Shown here one piece after another: positions 2,039-28,950 of a stretch of 32,000 bases of DNA. Position numbers and translations under genes: made by a program. The first letter of the stretch is position 1. Each line of letters begins with the position of its first letter. The notes under the pieces were generated by a model. The model saw nothing but the letters and a program-made list of their open reading frames with translations, had not been told where the DNA came from and did no database searches. Origin of the DNA: Candidatus Baldrarchaeota archaeon (lineage in GTDB: Archaea > Asgardarchaeota > Baldrarchaeia > Baldrarchaeales > DXJG01); assembly GCA_019056805.1 (NCBI GenBank), contig DXJG01000009.1, positions 239,473 through 271,472 on the forward strand, read 5' to 3'.

Positions 2039-2173
2039 AGCCGAAAAATAAAGACAAAACTCTCGATCATTAAAACAGAACTCACGAATAAAAACACCAT
2101 TGGGAAATTCACCTCCTTAGAGAGGTGAACCCAACACAATAATTGAATATAATATATTATGGGGGATAAAACC

Positions 2174-3097
2174 ATGACAGAAAATCTTGCTAATAAGAAA
2201 GAAGGAACCACTGTATGTCCCGAATGTGGTAGCACAACCATATTATTTGATCCTACTAGGGGAGAGCATGTTTGCGCATCTTGTGGATTAGTTCTATCTG
2301 AACATGCTGTAGATACTGGCCCTGAATGGAGAGCCTTTACTCATGAAGAATTAGAGAAAAGGAGCCGAACCGGGGCTCCTACAAGTTATAGATTTGCTGA
2401 TAAAGGTTTAAGTACAACTATTAGTTGGTCTGATCGTGACGCTCACGGTAGAAAACTTTCTCCATCTCGTAGAGCCCAAATATATAGACTTAGAAGATGG
2501 AATATTAGAACAACTGTTAGGAGAAGTCTTGCAGACGGCCTTATTGAACTAAGTCGAATAGCAAGCCAAATGGGAATACCTAACGATGTAAGTGAAACAG
2601 CAGCCCTCCTATATAGGAGAGCAGTAGAAAAACGACTAACCAGAGGACACCCTGTAAGCGCAATGGCAGCTGCTGCAGTTTACCTAGCATGTAGAATACA
2701 TAGAATACCTAGACCATTAGATGAAGTAGTTGCCCAAGCAAAATCAGACAGAAAAGATGTTTCAAAATGTGTTCGTGTTCTAATAAGAAGATTAAGTCAA
2801 GATTTCCCAAGACCGACAGCAATAAACTTCATACCAAGATTCGCAGCTGAACTAGGCTTATCAACAAAAACTCAGCGAAGAGCAATAGAAATCATGAAAA
2901 AAGCTCAAGAAACAGGAATAACCGCTGGAAAAGATCCTTCAGGACTTGCTGCGGCAACGATATACATCGCCAGTATCCTTGAAGGAGAAAGAAGAACACA
3001 AAGACAAATAGCTGAAGTAGCACACGTAACTGAAGTAACAGTTCGAAACCGATACAAAGAACTCTGTAAGAAACTAGGAATAAAAATAAAGGTCTAA
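2174..3097 (+). CDS. tfb: Transcription initiation factor IIB (TFB)
   Basis: Zn ribbon CPECG...CASCG, B-reader DTGPEWRAF, two cyclin repeats, C-terminal TQRQIAEVAHVTEVTVRNRYKEL. Start placed at ATG 2174 (GGGGGA SD); alternative ATG 2159. Confidence 0.97.
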   Translation: MTENLANKKEGTTVCPECGSTTILFDPTRGEHVCASCGLVLSEHAVDTGPEWRAFTHEELEKRSRTGAPTSYRFADKGLSTTISWSDRDAHGRKLSPSRRAQIYRLRRWNIRTTVRRSLADGLIELSRIASQMGIPNDVSETAALLYRRAVEKRLTRGHPVSAMAAAAVYLACRIHRIPRPLDEVVAQAKSDRKDVSKCVRVLIRRLSQDFPRPTAINFIPRFAAELGLSTKTQRRAIEIMKKAQETGITAGKDPSGLAAATIYIASILEGERRTQRQIAEVAHVTEVTVRNRYKELCKKLGIKIKV

Positions 3098-20059: not shown

Positions 20060-21448
20060 CTAACTTATCATTTTGATTTTTTCTAATCTTATATGTGGTG
20101 AGATAAGTGATCCAGAAGCGCTATCAGGAACCACCATGTCAACATCTATTCCAACCTCATCTATCTTTTTTAATATTTCAAATGCATTTCCTTGAATGGA
20201 GGCTTTCCTTATTGCACCACTAATTTCTCCTTTCTCAACTATATAACCGTGCATAACTGGTAAACTAAAGTCCCCTGACGGGCTCATAGTAAATCCCGAG
20301 AAAACGTTAAGCAAATAAACTCCCTTATTAACCTCGCTGATAAGATCATCTAATTTTTTAGAACCTGGCTCAATGACCAAGTTTGATATCCAAACACGTG
20401 GACGACAACTGAAGGATCTAGCGAAAAACATATCCCATGTAGGAGGTTCCCATCTTACACAGTTCCCAGTACTCTCAACATTATCGATGTTTGCCGTAAT
20501 ACTATCATAAAGAAAGCCCTTCAACACTCCCCTTTCTATGAGTAGTGTCCTTTGCGTAGGAACGCCTTCATCGTCAAATTTCGTGGTATAAAGTCCTCCT
20601 TCGTAGGTACCATCATCATATAGTGTTAATTTTTCTGAAGCAACAGTTTCTCCAATTTTTCCTTCAAACATGGATAGTTTTGCCTGAACTTGATCAGCAC
20701 AAAGAGACGTTGCAAAAGAATAGCTCAAAAGTTCAACCAGTACTTTTGGCGATAAAACTGCTTCGTAATCCCCTGTTTCGATATCCTTTTTCTCTGTTAA
20801 TCTTAAAACCTCATTTGCGGCAGTTTCTCCCAGTTTTTCCAAATTAAGATTACTAATGCTTCTCCTTGATACATTGAGTGAATATGTAACTTTCTCTTCG
20901 TTCTTTACGGACAAAGTTGTACTTATCCCTGCATATGTACCTTTGTCTTCGACCTCAACTCCGGATGTGTTCGCTATTGCAGTATTTATGGTACAGTGAT
21001 GTAAAGAGGACTCCAAAATAAGTATATCTTCATTTACACTTTTTATGAAGTTTTCAAGCGAGTCGATTAACTTCATTGCTTCTTCAACGCTTAAATCAGC
21101 AGTTTTATTATCATACGTTCCCTTCACATCACTAATAGTTTTTGGCGATGTAAATCCTTCAAACCCTCGTGTTTCCTCGGCCACGCTAAGAGCACTCCTA
21201 ACAGTAGATTTTAAAGCTTCTTTGCTAAAATCTGAACTATAGGCGAAACCTAACCTATTATCTTTAACTACTCGAATAGCCATTCCCTTTATAGTAGAGG
21301 AAATTCCACTAAAAGTCTTTTTATCAGCTTCAATGCCGAATATATAATCAGTTTTACTCTTGTTCATCACATAAACTTCACAATGATCTACTTTCTCTTC
21401 TTCAGCAATTTTAAGAACAATCTTAGCGATGGAAAGAAGTTCAGACAT
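20060..21448 (-). CDS. pmbA: PmbA/TldE family protein
   Basis: GMAIRVVKDNRLGFAYS, LTLYDDG, FDDEGVP.QRT.LIERGVLKGFLYD, SGDFS, GEI.GAI...SIQGN. Confidence 0.9.
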   Translation of the reverse strand: MSELLSIAKIVLKIAEEEKVDHCEVYVMNKSKTDYIFGIEADKKTFSGISSTIKGMAIRVVKDNRLGFAYSSDFSKEALKSTVRSALSVAEETRGFEGFTSPKTISDVKGTYDNKTADLSVEEAMKLIDSLENFIKSVNEDILILESSLHHCTINTAIANTSGVEVEDKGTYAGISTTLSVKNEEKVTYSLNVSRRSISNLNLEKLGETAANEVLRLTEKKDIETGDYEAVLSPKVLVELLSYSFATSLCADQVQAKLSMFEGKIGETVASEKLTLYDDGTYEGGLYTTKFDDEGVPTQRTLLIERGVLKGFLYDSITANIDNVESTGNCVRWEPPTWDMFFARSFSCRPRVWISNLVIEPGSKKLDDLISEVNKGVYLLNVFSGFTMSPSGDFSLPVMHGYIVEKGEISGAIRKASIQGNAFEILKKIDEVGIDVDMVVPDSASGSLISPHIRLEKIKMIS

Positions 21449-21451
21449 CTT

Positions 21452-22831
21452 TTACCCTCCAATCTTTAGTTCTTTAAATCTTATATGAGGACCGCCTCCA
21501 GAAACCGGGTAAAATCTATCACCTTCAATTAAACGTAATGGTAGTATGTCAAAGTCGTTTGCAACCGCGTCAATATTAAATAAGTCTTTGCTTGCATCCA
21601 CAACAAAAGTGGCTCCTCTAAGCGGCTCACCAAGTTCTCCATCAACTATACGATAACCCATCATGGTTTTACATTGAATAATTCTCCCAATCGTAGCACC
21701 AACAACGCCGCGAAGATAAACACCTTCCCTAATATTTTCAATTAACTCTTCAAATGATAAGTCACTAGATTTGATAATTGCATTTGAAACTATGGGTTTC
21801 GGCTGAAACAAAGCATTCGGAGCTCTAGAATGTCCCAATGGTTCTGTTTCAAATCTGTATGCAGTTTCCCTAGAGTGGATATAGGTCCTTAACACACCGT
21901 TTTCAATTACATTTACAGGCCTAGCTGGAACACCTTCTTCATCATAATGAAAGACGACAGGTAATCCCGAAGAAGTAGGGTCATCAGTCAATGTTATAAC
22001 CTCAGAACAAACTTTTTGACCGAGTTTCCCAGCAAAAGCTCCAAGTTCACTTTCAGGCATTGAGGCAAACTGAGCAGAGGTCATTAAACCAGTAGATAAA
22101 GCAATTAAACCAGTTATACCATTATCAACCACAACAGGATATTTACCAGGAGAAGGACTTTTAGCTGAGAGTAGCTTAACAGTATCTCGAGCAAGTCTTT
22201 CAGAAACTTCAAGCGGATCAGCATATGCCATTAGTTCTTGACCTGCACTAGCAGCGATCCTACCAATGGTTTGTTGAATCACCTCTCCTTCTCTTGCCAC
22301 CACAACTATACGAAGCTCGGTAAAAGGTATAATTTCTTCAATATATGACCCTTCACTATTACAAAAATACTTCTCTGTAACGTTATCGCTATAACTATAA
22401 TCTGTTCTTATAATTCTAGTATCAACCGATCTAGCTGCATTGTCACATTCAAGTATAATCTCCATTTTTTCCTCTATTGGAACCTCCCTAGGATCTTGAA
22501 TTTCACCTAGCTTAACCTTATCCTCAACAGGTTTTACTTCTTTTATCTTAATTGTCTCGGGAATTCTTTCCGCCCCAGTTTTAGCCATTTTAAAGGCTTT
22601 ATTAACAGCTCCAAGTAAATCGTCTTCCGATATTGAAGTCAAAGATGAAATACCCCAAACACCCTTCAGAACCCTGATACTTGCAGTTAACTCGACACTA
22701 GGAATAGTTCTCTCAATCCTGCCATTAACTATTCTAATGGTATTACTGTAAATTCTTTGTATCCTTACATCAGCATACTCCGCTCCTAATCCAACCGCAT
22801 TTTCAATTATTTTTTCTAAAAGATCTTTCAA
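21452..22831 (-). CDS. tldD: TldD family protein lacking the HExxxH motif
   Basis: GAEYADVRIQR, ITLTDDPT, YDEEGVP..PV.VIENGVL..Y.HSRETA, GEPLRGAT, VSGGGPHIRF. The expected HE..GH position reads IALSTGL. Confidence 0.85.
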   Translation of the reverse strand: MKDLLEKIIENAVGLGAEYADVRIQRIYSNTIRIVNGRIERTIPSVELTASIRVLKGVWGISSLTSISEDDLLGAVNKAFKMAKTGAERIPETIKIKEVKPVEDKVKLGEIQDPREVPIEEKMEIILECDNAARSVDTRIIRTDYSYSDNVTEKYFCNSEGSYIEEIIPFTELRIVVVAREGEVIQQTIGRIAASAGQELMAYADPLEVSERLARDTVKLLSAKSPSPGKYPVVVDNGITGLIALSTGLMTSAQFASMPESELGAFAGKLGQKVCSEVITLTDDPTSSGLPVVFHYDEEGVPARPVNVIENGVLRTYIHSRETAYRFETEPLGHSRAPNALFQPKPIVSNAIIKSSDLSFEELIENIREGVYLRGVVGATIGRIIQCKTMMGYRIVDGELGEPLRGATFVVDASKDLFNIDAVANDFDILPLRLIEGDRFYPVSGGGPHIRFKELKIGG

Positions 22832-23223
22832 ATGGAGGTTCCCCCAAACATTTTTACAAGATTTTCAGCAACTCTTCTTACCCTTATAAGTAAAAGAGCC
22901 AAGTTTGCTCTCATATCTGCAAAAGCAAAGACAATAATATTTTCCAAGTGTTCTATGACAGTCATGTTTTCACGTCCCCGAAAAATTATGTTGCGCACTT
23001 GATCACCGCCAGCTAACCTAACGAATTCCACAGCACGATCCAACATATCTTTGATGGTTCTCTCACTTAATCGAAATCTCCTCCGGTCAGCGTCTGTTCT
23101 ATGCCAACTATATACTCCTTTCCCTTCACTATTTAATATTACGATACTATTTACGCCGTAAAGAGAGGACAAATCTTTAACAACTCTAGCAATCTCTTCA
23201 CTCACTCCTAACACCTCTACCAA
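22828..23223 (-). CDS. Roadblock/LC7-domain protein
   Basis: ~130 aa, GVNSIVILNSEGKGV, then helix and beta hairpin, C-terminal ANLALLLIRVRRVAENL. Stop overlaps the tldD TTG start (TTGA). Confidence 0.75.
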   Translation of the reverse strand: MVEVLGVSEEIARVVKDLSSLYGVNSIVILNSEGKGVYSWHRTDADRRRFRLSERTIKDMLDRAVEFVRLAGGDQVRNIIFRGRENMTVIEHLENIIVFAFADMRANLALLLIRVRRVAENLVKMFGGTSI

Positions 23224-23388: not shown

Positions 23389-23679
23389 TTGGCACAAACA
23401 AAAAGAGAAGAGAACGTGATATTAGTAGGTAAAAAACCCCCAATGAACTATGTTCTAGCAGTTGTAATGCAATTCAATAGCGGGGCAAACGAAGTAGTAA
23501 TAAAGGCGAGAGGAAGAGCCATAAGTAAAGCCGTTGATGTAGCGGAAATCGTTAGACAAAGATTCCTACCTGAAATGGTAGAAGTAAAAGACGTAAAAAT
23601 CGGGAGTGAAGAAGTAGGAGAAGAACAAAATAAAAGAACAGTATCGACAATAGATATAACCTTAAGAAGAGTAAGTTAA
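23389..23679 (+). CDS. albA: Chromatin protein Alba
   Basis: [39 protein letters not shown]; TTG start with GGAGGTG SD. Confidence 0.97.
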
Positions 23680-23971
23680 AACTACTTTTACCTAGTATCT
23701 TTTTAATATCTCCATATACTTTCATCCTTTTATTTTATAATGCTAATATTCAATTAGAACAATCTTCAGCATTGAATCAAAAGAAAATACAATTTAGATT
23801 TAACAAGCATCAAATTAAAATATTAAATTAATCTTTTAAATGAAACAACAACACTTCTTTCCCTTTTAAACTGTTATTTTTTACCGTGCAAGAACAAATT
23901 TACTGCATAATAACAAAATATTTTTACACTTTAAAACAAATATATTTACAGGCTAATTTGCGGAGGGATTA

Positions 23972-24133
23972 ATAGCGAAGAAAGACCTTATTTTAATTGA
24001 ACGAAAAGAGTCAGATGGCACTTCCTGCGGAAATTGCGGTTACCCCTTAACTGTAGAGGTATACTGGAAAGCTGGAAAAATAATTAAACGAATATTTTGT
24101 GAAAACTGTGGAATGGAAGCATGGAGAACGTAA
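23972..24133 (+). CDS. Unannotated small zinc-ribbon protein (53 aa; probable ATA start)
   Basis: (M)AKKDLILIERKESDGTSCGNCGYPLTVEVYWKAGKIIKRIFCENCGMEAWRT*, with two CxxCG knuckles. In-frame TAA at 23954; GGAGGG SD at 23962-67; no ATG/GTG/TTG before the first knuckle. Confidence 0.7.
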   Translation: MAKKDLILIERKESDGTSCGNCGYPLTVEVYWKAGKIIKRIFCENCGMEAWRT

Positions 24134-24312
24134 AAGTTTTTCTCAGGCATTTCTTCGCAACTTTTTCCAGATTTTACAAAAAACTAGAACCAGACGCATA
24201 TATTTTTAAAATCGATAGCAACGGAATATTAAAAGAAGAATTTAAAGACTGTAGCCTCCAGAGAATAGGGGTTTTTAAGCGATATCTTAAAAAGGTTTTC
24301 CTTTTAAAGTAA
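24121..24312 (+). CDS. Possible small hypothetical protein
   Basis: 63-codon ORF overlapping the Zn-ribbon ORF end; no recognisable motif. Confidence 0.25.
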   Translation: MENVKVFLRHFFATFSRFYKKLEPDAYIFKIDSNGILKEEFKDCSLQRIGVFKRYLKKVFLLK

Positions 24313-24368
24313 GGTGATTTTACAAATGTTACTTAATGTCAAAATTTGATAGAATGGAGGAATCATAG

Positions 24369-24923
24369 ATGAGTGACGAGAAAATATATTACCGTGTGGA
24401 GAATATAGTGGCTAGCGTGGTTCTGGAGGACAGAATAGATCTGGAAAAAGTAGCTAACGCCTATCATAATGTCGAATACGATCCAGAACAATTCCCAGGA
24501 CTAGTATTCAGACTTCAAAACCCTAAAGCCGCGGTTCTCGTATTTAACACAGGAAAAATGGTTGTGACAGGATTAAAAAGAGAAGAAGAAGCAGAAGTAG
24601 TAGTCAACAAAGTAATAGAGAAAATAAGAAAAGCAGGAGTACCGATTAAAAGCAAACCACAAATACAAATACAAAACATAGTTTCTTCAGGAAGCATAGG
24701 CGCCGAAATTGATCTTGAATTAGCTTCAATAACCCTCGACGACTCCCTTTACGAACCAGAACAATTCCCAGGGTTAATATATAGAATGAAAGATCCAAAT
24801 GTAGTTTTCCTACTTTTCAGCAGCGGCAAAATAGTATGTACAGGCGCCAAAAAGGAGACAGATGTTGCAAGAGCAGTAAAGAAGCTTGCAAAAGAACTAA
24901 GAGAACTGGGTCTAGTCACCTAA
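24369..24923 (+). CDS. tbp: TATA-box binding protein
   Basis: Two direct repeats: ENIVAS...YDPEQFPGLVFRLQNPKAAVLVFNTGKMVVTG and QNIVSS...YEPEQFPGLIYRMKDPNVVFLLFSSGKIVCTGAK. Confidence 0.98.
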   Translation: MSDEKIYYRVENIVASVVLEDRIDLEKVANAYHNVEYDPEQFPGLVFRLQNPKAAVLVFNTGKMVVTGLKREEEAEVVVNKVIEKIRKAGVPIKSKPQIQIQNIVSSGSIGAEIDLELASITLDDSLYEPEQFPGLIYRMKDPNVVFLLFSSGKIVCTGAKKETDVARAVKKLAKELRELGLVT

Positions 24924-25026
24924 CGCGACATAAGTCAACTTTACCTTTTTATATTCAATTAAACTTAATTTAACATTAGACTAAGACTTGAATTTTAGTC
25001 AAACTTATTAGTTGGGGGAAAGATAA

Positions 25027-25611
25027 CTGAAATTTAAATGCTTAATGTGTGGTGAATGTTGCCGAGATAAAAAAATGATCGTAACAATCACCCATATCGA
25101 CATAAGTAGAATAGCTTCCCATCTAAATCTGGATGCTCAAGGCATCTTAAAACACGTAGCATTTTACCAAGTAGTAGGAAGAGGTTATGAAAAACTCGTA
25201 ACACCCCCTGTTACAACAACAAGAGGCATAGCTTATCTAGGCCTTTTAAAACTACAAGATGGTTCTTGCATTTTTCTCTCAAAAGATAATAAATGTTCTA
25301 TATATCCTGCTAGACCTTCTTCATGCCGCAACTTTCCTTTTACTTTTCAGTTGAAAAACAGATGGCTATATCAAGGTATATCGGTAAGAGCAAAGGAATA
25401 TTGTAAAGGTCTCGGAAAGGGTAGAAAAATAAGTGAAAAGGAATTAGAGAAGCAAGGCATTAAAACAATTAAAGAACTTAAGGAATATGAAAATCTAGTC
25501 TCAAAATGGAACGACCTAGCATTAAAAGGACAAATAAACCCTACCCCACAACTATTTATCGAATATTTACTTTCAAGAGGATTTCTAAACCTAAGCTTTT
25601 CTTTTCTTTAA
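25027..25611 (+). CDS. YkgJ-family cysteine-cluster protein (probable CTG start)
   Basis: (M)KFKCLMCGECC...CIFL...KCSIYPARPSSCRNFPF...C.GLG. The first Cys of CxxCGxCC lies upstream of the ORF-track ATG 25045; CTG 25027 follows an in-frame TAA and a GGGGG SD. Confidence 0.85.
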   Translation: MKFKCLMCGECCRDKKMIVTITHIDISRIASHLNLDAQGILKHVAFYQVVGRGYEKLVTPPVTTTRGIAYLGLLKLQDGSCIFLSKDNKCSIYPARPSSCRNFPFTFQLKNRWLYQGISVRAKEYCKGLGKGRKISEKELEKQGIKTIKELKEYENLVSKWNDLALKGQINPTPQLFIEYLLSRGFLNLSFSFL

Positions 25612-25778
25612 TAATTATTTTGAACTCCTAAGTATTGTTTCAAAACAACTTAAAGGATACTTTGAAAATCCTATTTTTTTAAAATCAAATTGTAGAAATT
25701 ATAAGAAGATAATAAACATGGAAAAACGTAATTTTATATGTAATGTACACATCTGCTTTGAATTTTCAAACGGTTGTG

Positions 25779-25790
25779 TTGGCGCCCCGC
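25779..25790 (+). promoter_or_regulatory. Candidate E2F-type site TTGGCGCCCCGC upstream of the E2F-like gene
   Basis: GC-rich GGCGCC core in an AT-rich intergenic region, about 40 nt downstream of a TTTTATAT TATA-like box (25732-39). Confidence 0.3.
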
Positions 25791-25909
25791 ACATACCGAA
25801 ATTTGAAGTGAAACATTACAATTAGTTGAATAATCACATTAAACCAAAAAATATATGTGTATCGGAGAGGTATACAAAAGTAATATCTCATTATTGTGGG
25901 GGGTACCAC

Positions 25910-26434
25910 GTGCGTCTTATGGAGATGACGAAGCGTGCTGTCGAGATTCTCCAGAAAGCCGGTGAACAAGGCTGTCTGAACATAGAATTAGCGTGGAAAC
26001 TCGGCGTGTCAAGAAGAAGAATATATGATATTATCGCTGTACTGAGGGCAGTGGATTTAATAAAAACAGTCAAAGAAAGAAGAGGAACAAGAATAATATG
26101 GAAAACGCCACTGCATTTCCAAGAGGAAAAGGAAAGACTTCTCCAAGAATATAGAAAATTAAAGAAAGAAAAATATTCTCTTGAAAAACAAATTACAATA
26201 TTAGAAGAACAGCTTGAAGCCTTAAAAGAAAAGAAAGTTGTACAAATATCTGAAACTGTAAAATTTAACGTAAGAAAAATAAGAATAAAGAGCGAATCTG
26301 GTTTTTTGAGAATTTCAGGTAGAGGTATGGAAGCCATAGTAGAATCTTCAAGCCCTGGCATAATCGTTCAACCCTTACCCATCTACATTCCAGTTAACTC
26401 AACAAAACCGATGGAAAAAACTAAGGAAAGATAA
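25910..26434 (+). CDS. E2F/DP-family winged-helix transcription factor-like protein with coiled coil
   Basis: L...TKR..E.L........L....A..L.V..RRIYDI..VL....LI.......I.W matches the E2F DNA-binding domain pattern, followed by a heptad coiled coil and a beta-rich tail. Likely GTG start at 25910 (GGGGGG SD); the ORF track starts at TTG 25826. Confidence 0.85.
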   Translation: MRLMEMTKRAVEILQKAGEQGCLNIELAWKLGVSRRRIYDIIAVLRAVDLIKTVKERRGTRIIWKTPLHFQEEKERLLQEYRKLKKEKYSLEKQITILEEQLEALKEKKVVQISETVKFNVRKIRIKSESGFLRISGRGMEAIVESSSPGIIVQPLPIYIPVNSTKPMEKTKER

Positions 26435-26979: not shown

Positions 26980-27543
26980 TCAAATATTCACACCCTCACC
27001 GCCAAGGAAGCCCCATGGTTTTAAATCATACTTTCTTCCATGTTTATAGTTGATATAGACTGGGACTTTCTCTACGTTAGCTATAGTTATAGGTACTAAA
27101 TAATACTCTTTTAAATTTAGTTTTACAAAGAATATCAAAACTTCTTCTATGTTGAAATACTTTAGAAAACTCAATATGATAGTTAAATAAGGTTTTATTA
27201 ATACTTGTAGTTACATCAATAGCAAATACTTTGTCATCTTTACGAGCAAGAGCATCAAAGTAGAAATTCTTTGAAGGTCTAAAGATATCAGTAAATCCCA
27301 TTTTTGGTAATACATTACTTATAACCAATCTCTCAGCCATAGTTGAGCAATTCTCTACTCCTTCCTCCTTCCATTGCTTCATCTTTTCTAAATATTTTTG
27401 TTTTCTATACGTTCTTACCTTCTCTAGATGCTTACTTCCCTATTTTCTTTTGTATTCCTTAACTTTATCTGGATTTTTCTTCTGCCACTCTCTAGACTCT
27501 CTTATTCTCCTATCTCTATGCTTTCTGTAGTACTTTTGGTCAT
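26980..27543 (-). pseudogene. Decayed PD-(D/E)XK-type endonuclease with basic helical N-terminus
   Basis: Segments join into MTK/KYYRKHRDRRIRESREWQKKNPDKVKEYKRK*GSKH...AERLVISNVLPKMGF...FDALARKDDKVFAIDVTTS.../FLKYFNIEEVLIFFVK...; this needs a frameshift near 27535, an in-frame TAG (about 27440) and a frameshift near 27175. Confidence 0.65.
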
Positions 27544-27589
27544 AGCTTAACTCCCTACCATATTTGTTACTATGTTCTTATTCTTCATA

Positions 27590-28950
27590 AGTTTTTTTGG
27601 GAAGAGTTGGCGGAAAGTTATTTATAGTTTCGGCTACAACACTATATCGGGTGCTGAGAGTGGATAGAGTCGTTGTTAAGGCTCTGAAGCTCAATCTACT
27701 CCCTCTGTCAAAGATGAAAGAACACTTGTTAGCTGAATTATTCAACTCCGTCCTTCGCTGCTGTAACGATGTTTTAGCAATTGCCAAATCTAAATCTCCT
27801 AAAAACTTCGCCATTCTACATAACACTTCCTATCCTATTATTAAGCAAAAATATGACTTACATTCTCAAATCCTCGTTGACTGCATCCACCAAGCTTGGG
27901 AAAATCGAAAGACAAATCCGGATAAGTTCAAGCAAATTCCTGTCAGATTCAACGTCCCTCGTAGTGGAAAATTTGGTGAAACTAAGCGTGGTAATCCTGT
28001 TGTGATTATTGCATCGTTTAACGGAAATGGAAGAATTGCCCTTCCAATCAAGCAAGATGGAGCCTATAAGAGATTTGTTAAACACATTAAAAATGGCTGG
28101 AAATGCACCCAATTTAGACTGCACAAGCAGAATGACAATTATGTCGTTATCGCTAATCTGAGAAAGAAGTTTAGGGTTAAACAAAAGTATAAGACTGTTG
28201 TAGGGGTTGATGTTAACAGCGGTAGTTTCGCTGTCACAGTTTTGAGAGGTGACAGGAGAGTTTTGAAGCAACTTTATCTGGGACAAGACATCTGGCACAA
28301 ACAATGGAAGTTCATGAAGAGAAGAAGCAAACTTCAAAGTTACGCAGACAAGGGGAGTAAGAGGGCACGGCGTGCCCTCAAAAGAATGAAGCACGATGAG
28401 AGAAACTTCGTCAATACGAGAATATGGCAAGTAAGCCATGAAATTGTTGAAATAGCTTTGAGATACGATGCTGTAATTGCTATTGAGAGGCTTAAGAACC
28501 TCAGAAAGAGGAATGGAAAGGGCAGAAAACCTAAGACTGCAAACAGAAAGATTCATCGCATTCCATTCGCCAAGTTCAGAATGACAATACGATCTGTTGC
28601 GTGGCAGAATGGAATTGAAGTTATTGAAGTTCGAGCTACAAAGACTTCGCAGAGATGTCCAAAGTGTGGTTATACGAGTAAGAAAAACTGGGTCTTCTTC
28701 AATGGAAAGCGCAAGTTGTTCAAATGCAGGAAATGCGGTTATGAGGCAAATGTGGATAGGACTGCCTCCCGAAACATTGCAACTCTGGCTCTGGAGCGGG
28801 GTTTGACTTCTTTTGAAACCACTCTCAGCACCCAGCCCCAGAGTTCCAGAGCCGGCGGGGATGTCAGCCCCCGTGTCCGGCTCGATGACGGAAGATGGTA
28901 TCCTCAACCCTCCGAGAGCAAACTCCCGTCTTAAGACGGGAGAGGCTGAC
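27590..28950 (+). mobile_element. tnpB-only IS200/IS605-family element (IS1341-like); left end approximate
   Basis: tnpB plus right-end palindrome CTCCCGTCTTAAGACGGGAG (28923-42) ending GGCTGAC; own BRE/TATA (GGAAAGTTATTTATA, ~27612-26); no tnpA. Confidence 0.8.
27660..28934 (+). CDS. tnpB: TnpB RNA-guided endonuclease
   Basis: VKALKLNL N-terminus, RuvC-I VVGVDVN, RuvC-II IAIERL, Zn finger CPKCG...CRKCG, RuvC-III NVDRTASRNI. Start placed at GTG 27660. Confidence 0.95.
   Translation: MDRVVVKALKLNLLPLSKMKEHLLAELFNSVLRCCNDVLAIAKSKSPKNFAILHNTSYPIIKQKYDLHSQILVDCIHQAWENRKTNPDKFKQIPVRFNVPRSGKFGETKRGNPVVIIASFNGNGRIALPIKQDGAYKRFVKHIKNGWKCTQFRLHKQNDNYVVIANLRKKFRVKQKYKTVVGVDVNSGSFAVTVLRGDRRVLKQLYLGQDIWHKQWKFMKRRSKLQSYADKGSKRARRALKRMKHDERNFVNTRIWQVSHEIVEIALRYDAVIAIERLKNLRKRNGKGRKPKTANRKIHRIPFAKFRMTIRSVAWQNGIEVIEVRATKTSQRCPKCGYTSKKNWVFFNGKRKLFKCRKCGYEANVDRTASRNIATLALERGLTSFETTLSTQPQSSRAGGDVSPRVRLDDGRWYPQPSESKLPS

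Follow-up and report, generated by a model that had tools for sequence, protein, structure and literature searches.

Conserved Asgard gene neighbourhood of Alba, a zinc ribbon, YkgJ and a cyclophilin-like paralog around an E2F-like gene

A gene for an E2F/DP-type winged-helix protein was analysed in a 32,000-nt stretch of Candidatus Baldrarchaeota archaeon (contig DXJG01000009.1, positions 239,473 to 271,472; the whole stretch is called the window), which is part of a 1.92-Mb Asgard metagenome-assembled genome (MAG) of the Baldrarchaeia. The named proteins most closely related to those of the window carry the label Baldrarchaeota. We found that the genes around it form a neighbourhood, Alba-zinc ribbon-YkgJ-(E2F-like)-cyclophilin-like, which is conserved across distant Asgard lineages with differing flanks. 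The five plus-strand genes of the window are probably part of this old neighbourhood, in which Alba, zinc ribbon, YkgJ and, where present, the E2F-like gene face a dedicated cyclophilin-like paralog. Judged from sequence, our best guess is that the whole forms a module associated with Alba, in which the E2F-like protein is the resident regulator.

An earlier note on this DNA had described a cluster of five plus-strand genes at 23389-26434. Family matches and reading of the open reading frames (ORFs) bore out all five genes at about those positions. The cluster does not end at 26434, and the convergent cyclophilin-like gene belongs to it too. The genes are as follows.

23389..23679 (+): Alba; TTG start after the Shine-Dalgarno (SD) sequence GGAGGTG; PF01918 3e-26, NCBIfam AlbA 2e-39
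23972..24133 (+): zinc ribbon (ZnR), 53 aa; ATA start; motif CGNCG-x20-CENCG; uncharacterised family
24369..24923 (+): TBP; PF00352 1.6e-60, two repeats
25027..25611 (+): CxxCxxCC/YkgJ protein; probable CTG start; PF03692 52.2 bits, profile positions 1-78
25910..26434 (+): E2F/DP-type winged-helix protein, 174 aa; GTG start; PF02319 36.5 bits
26562..26969 (-): cyclophilin-like gene (Cyc); PF04126 9e-25; faces the E2F-like gene across 127 nt

The gaps between the five co-oriented genes are, in order, 292, 235, 103 and 298 nt. The Alba gene is one of three Alba paralogs of the genome and the YkgJ gene one of its four PF03692 genes; a genome search found TBP as a single copy.

Gene order across Asgard lineages

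Loci with E2F-like genes were collected from 40 relatives and from 80 named loci (one genome per GTDB species), and a zinc-ribbon profile was searched in 40 relatives. The f-numbers below are GTDB families, f1 and f2 being two families of Baldrarchaeia. Of 86 loci, 78 had a Cyc gene no more than 4 kb from the E2F-like gene; the two were convergent in 76 of these, and the gap had a median of 66 nt. Among the named loci, which carry the lineage labels Thor, Hermod, Sif, Borr, Asgardarchaeia, Hel, Baldr, Jord and Hod, 75 of the 80 had Cyc beside the E2F-like gene. Cyc, which was absent from the earlier note, is the anchor of the neighbourhood and accompanies the E2F-like gene more constantly than any other.

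In Baldr, Jord and Hod the E2F-like gene is flanked by YkgJ and Cyc, and in Thor and others it is paired with Cyc alone. The order Alba-ZnR-YkgJ-E2F facing Cyc was found in five Jord loci and two Hod loci; the Baldrarchaeia have the same full order with TBP inserted between ZnR and YkgJ. The genes are reshuffled yet adjacent in Hel, where Cyc-E2F-YkgJ are co-oriented, YkgJ is divergent from or downstream of the E2F-like gene, or ZnR lies directly upstream of it. The flanks of the E2F/Cyc pair in Thor are unrelated genes, including those of a CobW-like GTPase and a vWA protein.

Parts of the arrangement were also found where the E2F-like gene is missing from it. Three f8 loci carry Alba-ZnR-YkgJ facing Cyc with a gap of ~20-80 nt, and no PF02319 match was obtained in 5 genomes of this family. 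YkgJ faces Cyc in f4, and f10 has YkgJ with a convergent Cyc 825 nt apart. Alba-ZnR faces Cyc in f5, and in f13 Alba-ZnR are together with Cyc 3.4 kb off. ZnR faces Cyc in the Odinarchaeia, where the E2F-like gene is elsewhere in the genome, and the E2F-like and Cyc genes are unlinked in f12. Taken by pairs, Alba adjoins ZnR in f1, f5, f8, f13, f18 and Hod, and YkgJ adjoins Cyc or the E2F-like gene in f1, f2, f4, f8, f18, Hod and Hel; sub-pairs of the neighbourhood are what is found in f3, f4, f5, f10, f13, Hel, Thor, Sif/Borr, Hermod and Asgardarchaeia. The suggestion in the earlier note that the gene order might be conserved thus held for Alba-ZnR-YkgJ-E2F, for which the synteny check found conservation far beyond this genome, and failed for TBP.

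Two of the loci have labels that differ from their content. Locus L048 (DATKTP010000167.1) is binned as a bacterium, 'Candidatus Deferrimicrobium', and carries a Helarchaeota-type Cyc-E2F-YkgJ cluster; it is probably mis-binned. Locus L036 (JAGGSW010000099.1) comes from MAG AUK032, which is labelled Odinarchaeota, yet belongs to the same GTDB genus as the Baldrarchaeia window analysed here.

The E2F-like protein and its cyclophilin-like neighbour

Asgard homologues of E2F/DP are regarded as a hint that cell-cycle control of transcription is older than eukaryotes. The protein of the window matched the E2F/DP DNA-binding-domain profile at 36.5 bits, above the cut-off of 25.7 bits, and genes with a PF02319 match were present in 123 of 301 Asgard genomes sampled, patchily distributed across classes. 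It is a member of the Asgard E2F/DP homologues described by Eme et al. (2023, Nature 618:992, PMC10307638; arCOG02749) and reviewed in PMC7617429, and shares their winged helix with the base-contact motif RRxYD. According to section 4.1.5 of the supplement of that study, the homology of the Asgard proteins covers only the DNA-binding domain, and the regulator-binding domains are absent (PMC10307638). That section does not mention the genomic context of Asgard E2F. The Asgard E2F itself is already published, and the pairing with Cyc and the Alba-ZnR-YkgJ order are the additions of the present analysis.

The winged helix of the protein contains the motif RRRIYD, and the residues R36, R37, Y39 and D40 do not vary among 17 homologues. 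When the family profile was compared with the PDB, only E2F8 (1.9e-12), E2F4 (1.1e-6) and DP2 (0.012) were matched. The AlphaFold2 model, with a predicted local distance difference test score (pLDDT) of 84, consists of a winged helix at residues 1-64, a long helix at 67-105 and four strands at 123-156. Its fold alignment to 1CF7_A gave Z 9.5 and a root-mean-square deviation of 1.5 over 62 residues with 36% identity. A wide VIA-align search returned winged helices on residues 1-66, with 1CF7 as one of many equal matches, and in Foldseek the whole model matched generic winged helix-turn-helix regulators only, at E above 1e-3. The C-terminal half, where a coiled-coil and marked-box dimerisation module like that of E2F/DP would lie, was folded by itself and matched coiled coils only (Z of 5.6 or less), and a monomer model of this kind cannot reveal an intertwined dimer fold.

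The DNA-binding-domain profile and the long helix behind the domain are shared with eukaryotic E2F/DP (PF02319; 1CF7, 4YO2). Unlike the eukaryotic proteins, the present one has only 174 aa, lacks an activation or pocket-binding region and a second subunit gene, and is encoded in a prokaryotic neighbourhood. No transactivation or pocket-protein-binding region was found in it, and the chain ends ~18 residues past the last strand in a tail of low pLDDT.

Other forms of the gene were observed among the relatives. The genomes G001 and G003 are congeners of the present one, and genus comparisons below cover these three genomes. A second E2F-like paralog, ~51% identical, is present on contig C299 of G001 (L023 7900-8448), not beside Cyc, YkgJ or TBP. 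Three loci (L034, L035 and L094) encode short E2F-like forms of ~120-130 aa, in which the long helix is missing and the beta tail is kept. Two of them, L034 and L035, belong to f14 and come from genomes with no PF04126 match; in f14 as a whole, the E2F-like gene was found in 9 of 11 genomes and Cyc in 0 of 11.

Cyc has a family match of the TM1367/AF2241 type (PF04126; 1ZX8, 2KA0, 2NNZ). Its relatives in the PDB are TM1367 (1e-16) and 2NNZ, which are structural-genomics proteins with no function assigned. It also has relatives in Bathyarchaeota (P0049, P0117 and P0123). In a tree of 51 cyclophilin-like proteins, most unlinked copies formed one clade, supported at 98 in the Shimodaira-Hasegawa-like approximate likelihood-ratio test (SH-aLRT), which holds the Lokiarchaeia-type copies and the second copies of two-copy genomes. 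The cluster-linked copies differ from most unlinked Asgard copies in that all of them fall outside this clade, together with five copies that were scored as unlinked. In the genomes with two copies, the linked one matched PF04126 at ~1e-15 and the unlinked one at ~1e-46. The cluster thus carries a paralog of its own.

The constancy of the pair raises the question of whether the E2F-like factor has in Cyc, perhaps joined by YkgJ or ZnR, a protein partner or regulator dedicated to it, which would act as a pocket protein does in eukaryotes and make the cluster an E2F control module. Nearly all E2F-like genes of the long form, which have the helix and the beta tail, are convergent with the Cyc paralog, and the short helix-less forms of f14 occur in genomes that lack PF04126, as would be expected of such a partnership. 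However, Cyc is also linked to YkgJ, ZnR or Alba in f8, f4, f10 and f5, lineages that lack any E2F-like gene, so its function cannot depend on E2F. The two genes are moreover unlinked in Odin and f12. We therefore regard a pocket-protein role of Cyc as quite improbable and retain the reading of an Alba-associated module with a resident E2F-like regulator.

On the far side of Cyc, between it and a radical-SAM gene, the window contains at 27077-28934 an IS200/IS605-type TnpB gene (27597-28934) and a 101-aa ORF. The TnpB insertion is recent, since the Cyc and radical-SAM genes are only ~100 nt apart in both congeners.

TBP and the basal machinery

The earlier note had proposed a possibly conserved module by which the basal machinery (TBP, with tfb in the same window) is linked to an E2F-type regulator. 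Eukaryotic E2F1 is reported to contact TBP via its activation domain, and the proposal echoes that contact. Several features of the window agree with it. ZnR and YkgJ flank TBP, the sole copy of the genome, and the E2F-like start follows 987 nt downstream of it; TBP-YkgJ-E2F-Cyc is kept in two families of the Baldrarchaeia, f1 and f2.

The wider comparison argues against the coupling. In a survey of 30 TBP loci from 17-18 families, with 40 relatives covered, YkgJ, the E2F-like gene or ZnR stood beside TBP only in f1 and f2, and outside these two families no YkgJ, ZnR, Alba or E2F-like gene was present within 1.5 kb of TBP. The clusters of Jord, Hod and f8 have no TBP, so a neighbourhood that includes TBP is not conserved. 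The complete genome G039, which has a Jord-type cluster, carries TBP genes at 0.96 and 3.27 Mb and its E2F-like gene at 1.127 Mb, ~166-167 kb from the nearer of them, and in Odinarchaeum LCB_4 the distance between TBP and the E2F-like gene is 34 kb. The second basal gene is also remote:

2159-3097: tfb; inside the window, 21 kb from the cluster

Thus the presence of tfb in the window, which the earlier note had stated, was confirmed, and it does not place tfb in the cluster. No E2F-type site was found in the TBP promoter. Furthermore, the 174-aa protein ends after its beta-rich tail and leaves no room for an activation domain of the E2F1 type. A conserved E2F-TBP module is accordingly very unlikely. 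TBP joined the cluster only in the Baldrarchaeia, and this is a lineage-specific placement of a housekeeping gene. In G001, a TnpB insertion sequence element lies directly upstream of TBP (L022 10511-11884), and Alba-ZnR are on another contig.

Promoters, start codons and a possible common task

Three of the genes have unusual or ambiguous starts. The ZnR frame has no ATG, GTG or TTG start; ATA at 23972 is preceded by the SD sequence GGAGGG, and an in-frame TAA lies at 23954, 18 nt upstream. The codon at 23972-23974, ATA here, is GTG at the same position in the congeners G003 and G001. The identical codon was also found in contigs of independent runs that stem from two other studies or samples, so the ATA is not an assembly error. 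Unless translation starts at ATA, the gene would be poorly translated in this population. The dN/dS of ZnR was ~0.03 against the two congeners, which reflects strong purifying selection, and ZnR is therefore a real gene. It gave no Pfam match above the cut-off and no NCBIfam match, its best E against PDB sequences was 0.14, and the protein atlas yielded nothing beyond generic zinc ribbons; the named homologues are exclusively hypothetical proteins of Asgard MAGs. Another ORF, at 24121-24312 in the gap between ZnR and TBP, was rejected as a gene, since it matched no family and the congener showed no conservation of it.

The CTG at 25027 of YkgJ sits directly behind an in-frame stop (25024-25029) in the three genomes of the genus, and the motif KCLMCGECC, with the first cysteine of the family included, is complete only from this codon. 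The orthologues of f2 and Hod have ATG in its place. The protein is a PF03692 member with the N-terminal C-x2-C-x2-CC motif and four further cysteines. The ORF of the E2F-like protein opens at TTG 25826, and GTG 25910 lies 6 nt after the SD sequence GGGGGG. An N-terminal extension from TTG 25826 was rejected, as this stretch is interrupted by a stop in the congeners and offers no start in frame. The gene call in the database, with 174 aa, agrees with GTG 25910.

The alignments of the congeners revealed TATA-like blocks conserved within the genus in every intergenic region of the cluster. The DNA upstream of Alba contains a long conserved leader as well as a promoter-like block, and upstream of ZnR the conserved elements are AAAATATTTTT and ACAAAnATATT. 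A 40-nt conserved block precedes TBP, 20-60 nt before the start. The sequence CTTTTTATATT is conserved before YkgJ, and AAAAAATATATG forms the conserved TATA-like block before the E2F-like gene. The view of the earlier note that gaps of 100-300 nt point to separate promoters is supported by these blocks upstream of all five genes, and the genes here are most likely transcribed from separate promoters. A search for RNA sequencing runs that contain this DNA found none. In other lineages Alba-ZnR-YkgJ looks packed like an operon, as with the short gaps of f8. Two further features were assigned upstream of the E2F-like gene.

25779..25790: predicted E2F-type palindromic core, TTGGCGCC(CCGC), ~130 nt upstream of the E2F-like start
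25844..25909 (+): promoter/leader of the E2F-like gene, with a TATA-like box at 25846-25857, an inverted repeat at 25865-25889 and the SD sequence at 25898-25903

GGCGCC is similar to the palindrome at the core of classical E2F sites, and the GGCGCC-core site upstream of the present gene is a further likeness to eukaryotic E2F/DP. The sequence TGTGTTGGCGCCnnnCACA is kept in all three genomes of the genus ~130-150 nt before the E2F-like start, with the surrounding intergenic DNA diverged, and the block TGTGTTGGCGCC (25773-25790) is conserved in the three congeners. The Hod loci carry ATGGCGCCAG, which includes GGCGCC, upstream of their own E2F-like gene. Among the promoters of the cluster, TTGGCGCC is the only site with a GCGC core. 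Autoregulation of the E2F-like gene through TTGGCGCC is plausible, and the protein would probably work locally, as a homodimer, and regulate at the least its own gene by way of this site. The 84 nt before the E2F-like start are ~89% identical to the congeners, compared with ~55% for the protein. The inverted repeat of the leader, GAGAGGTAT-N9-ATA(T/C)CTC, contains one C to T change under which pairing is kept as G.U; the repeat may thus be a hairpin in the leader RNA or an operator at the transcription start.

The other members of the neighbourhood, namely Alba, ZnR, the probable Fe-S protein YkgJ and Cyc, would probably share a task related to nucleic acid or chromatin. PF03692 proteins bind metal through their cysteines. 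The CX2CX2CC motif of this family has been compared with the CX4CX3CC motif of FliB, which binds [4Fe-4S], and FliB is a SAM (S-adenosylmethionine)-dependent flagellin/protein lysine methyltransferase (PMC8598068). The cysteine motif of the present YkgJ is similar to that of FliB and differs in spacing, and YkgJ had no detectable sequence match to the FliB models in NCBIfam. By analogy with FliB, a protein-modifying Fe-S enzyme is a reasonable guess for YkgJ, and we speculate that such an enzyme might modify Alba or another partner.

Several points weigh against the reading of an Alba-associated module with a resident E2F-like regulator. Related genomes do not count as independent, and Thor loci weigh most heavily in the counts. 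No common pathway is known for the cluster products and no function for PF04126 or ZnR, and the convergent E2F-like/Cyc pair cannot be co-transcribed. No sites with a GCGC or CGCG core were found in the promoters of Alba, ZnR, TBP, YkgJ or Cyc, so regulation of the neighbours by the E2F-like factor is not supported. Across 72-78 loci, TTTSSCGC, SGCGCS, GCGCG and CGCG were not enriched upstream of or between the E2F-like and Cyc genes; GGCGCC was ~4-fold enriched upstream, but in 6 loci only. GGCGCC showed no intergenic enrichment in the present genome (15 of 86 sites intergenic), and several of these lie at tRNA 3' ends, judged by their CCA-type sequence. A cluster-wide E2F regulon was accordingly rejected, as E2F-type motifs were unenriched across both the loci and the genome. 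Finally, TldD/PmbA genes are located a few kb upstream of Alba in Baldr, the Jord type and f8 (window 20060-23223; L032 573-3338; L181 29-754), and also near the cluster in f1, f8 and f18. The syntenic block may thus be larger than the five genes, and part of the conservation could be plain inherited synteny.

Carried to its end, this last point would mean that the genes have no functional link at all, being unrelated housekeeping genes with their own promoters that have stayed together by inheritance. The separate conserved TATA-like boxes, the gaps of 100-300 nt, the heterogeneous annotations with no shared motif, and the likewise persistent TldD/PmbA genes in three families are in agreement with this explanation. 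However, the adjacency has outlasted a divergence to 30-55% protein identity between classes with the flanks replaced, inversions and the reshuffling in Hel, and gain and loss of the E2F-like gene. Alba-ZnR-YkgJ are tight in f8 (~20-80 nt gap), and the linked Cyc copies stand outside the clade of most unlinked copies. These results make an adjacency through inheritance alone unlikely, and favour an old neighbourhood with a dedicated Cyc paralog.

A more specific form of the preferred reading is a tentative one, to which we give a rather low probability: Alba, the Asgard-specific ZnR, the Fe-S-type YkgJ and Cyc may work as one unit, physical or enzymatic, whose task might for instance be the modification of a chromatin protein, and to which the E2F-like protein would have been recruited as regulator or partner. 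The analysis removes the tempting story of an ancestral E2F-TBP module. The candidates found instead alongside the E2F-like gene across most E2F-bearing Asgard classes are the Cyc paralog, YkgJ, ZnR and one Alba paralog. If such a unit exists, it would name the first candidate partners of a prokaryotic E2F and offer a route to the ancestral function of this family.

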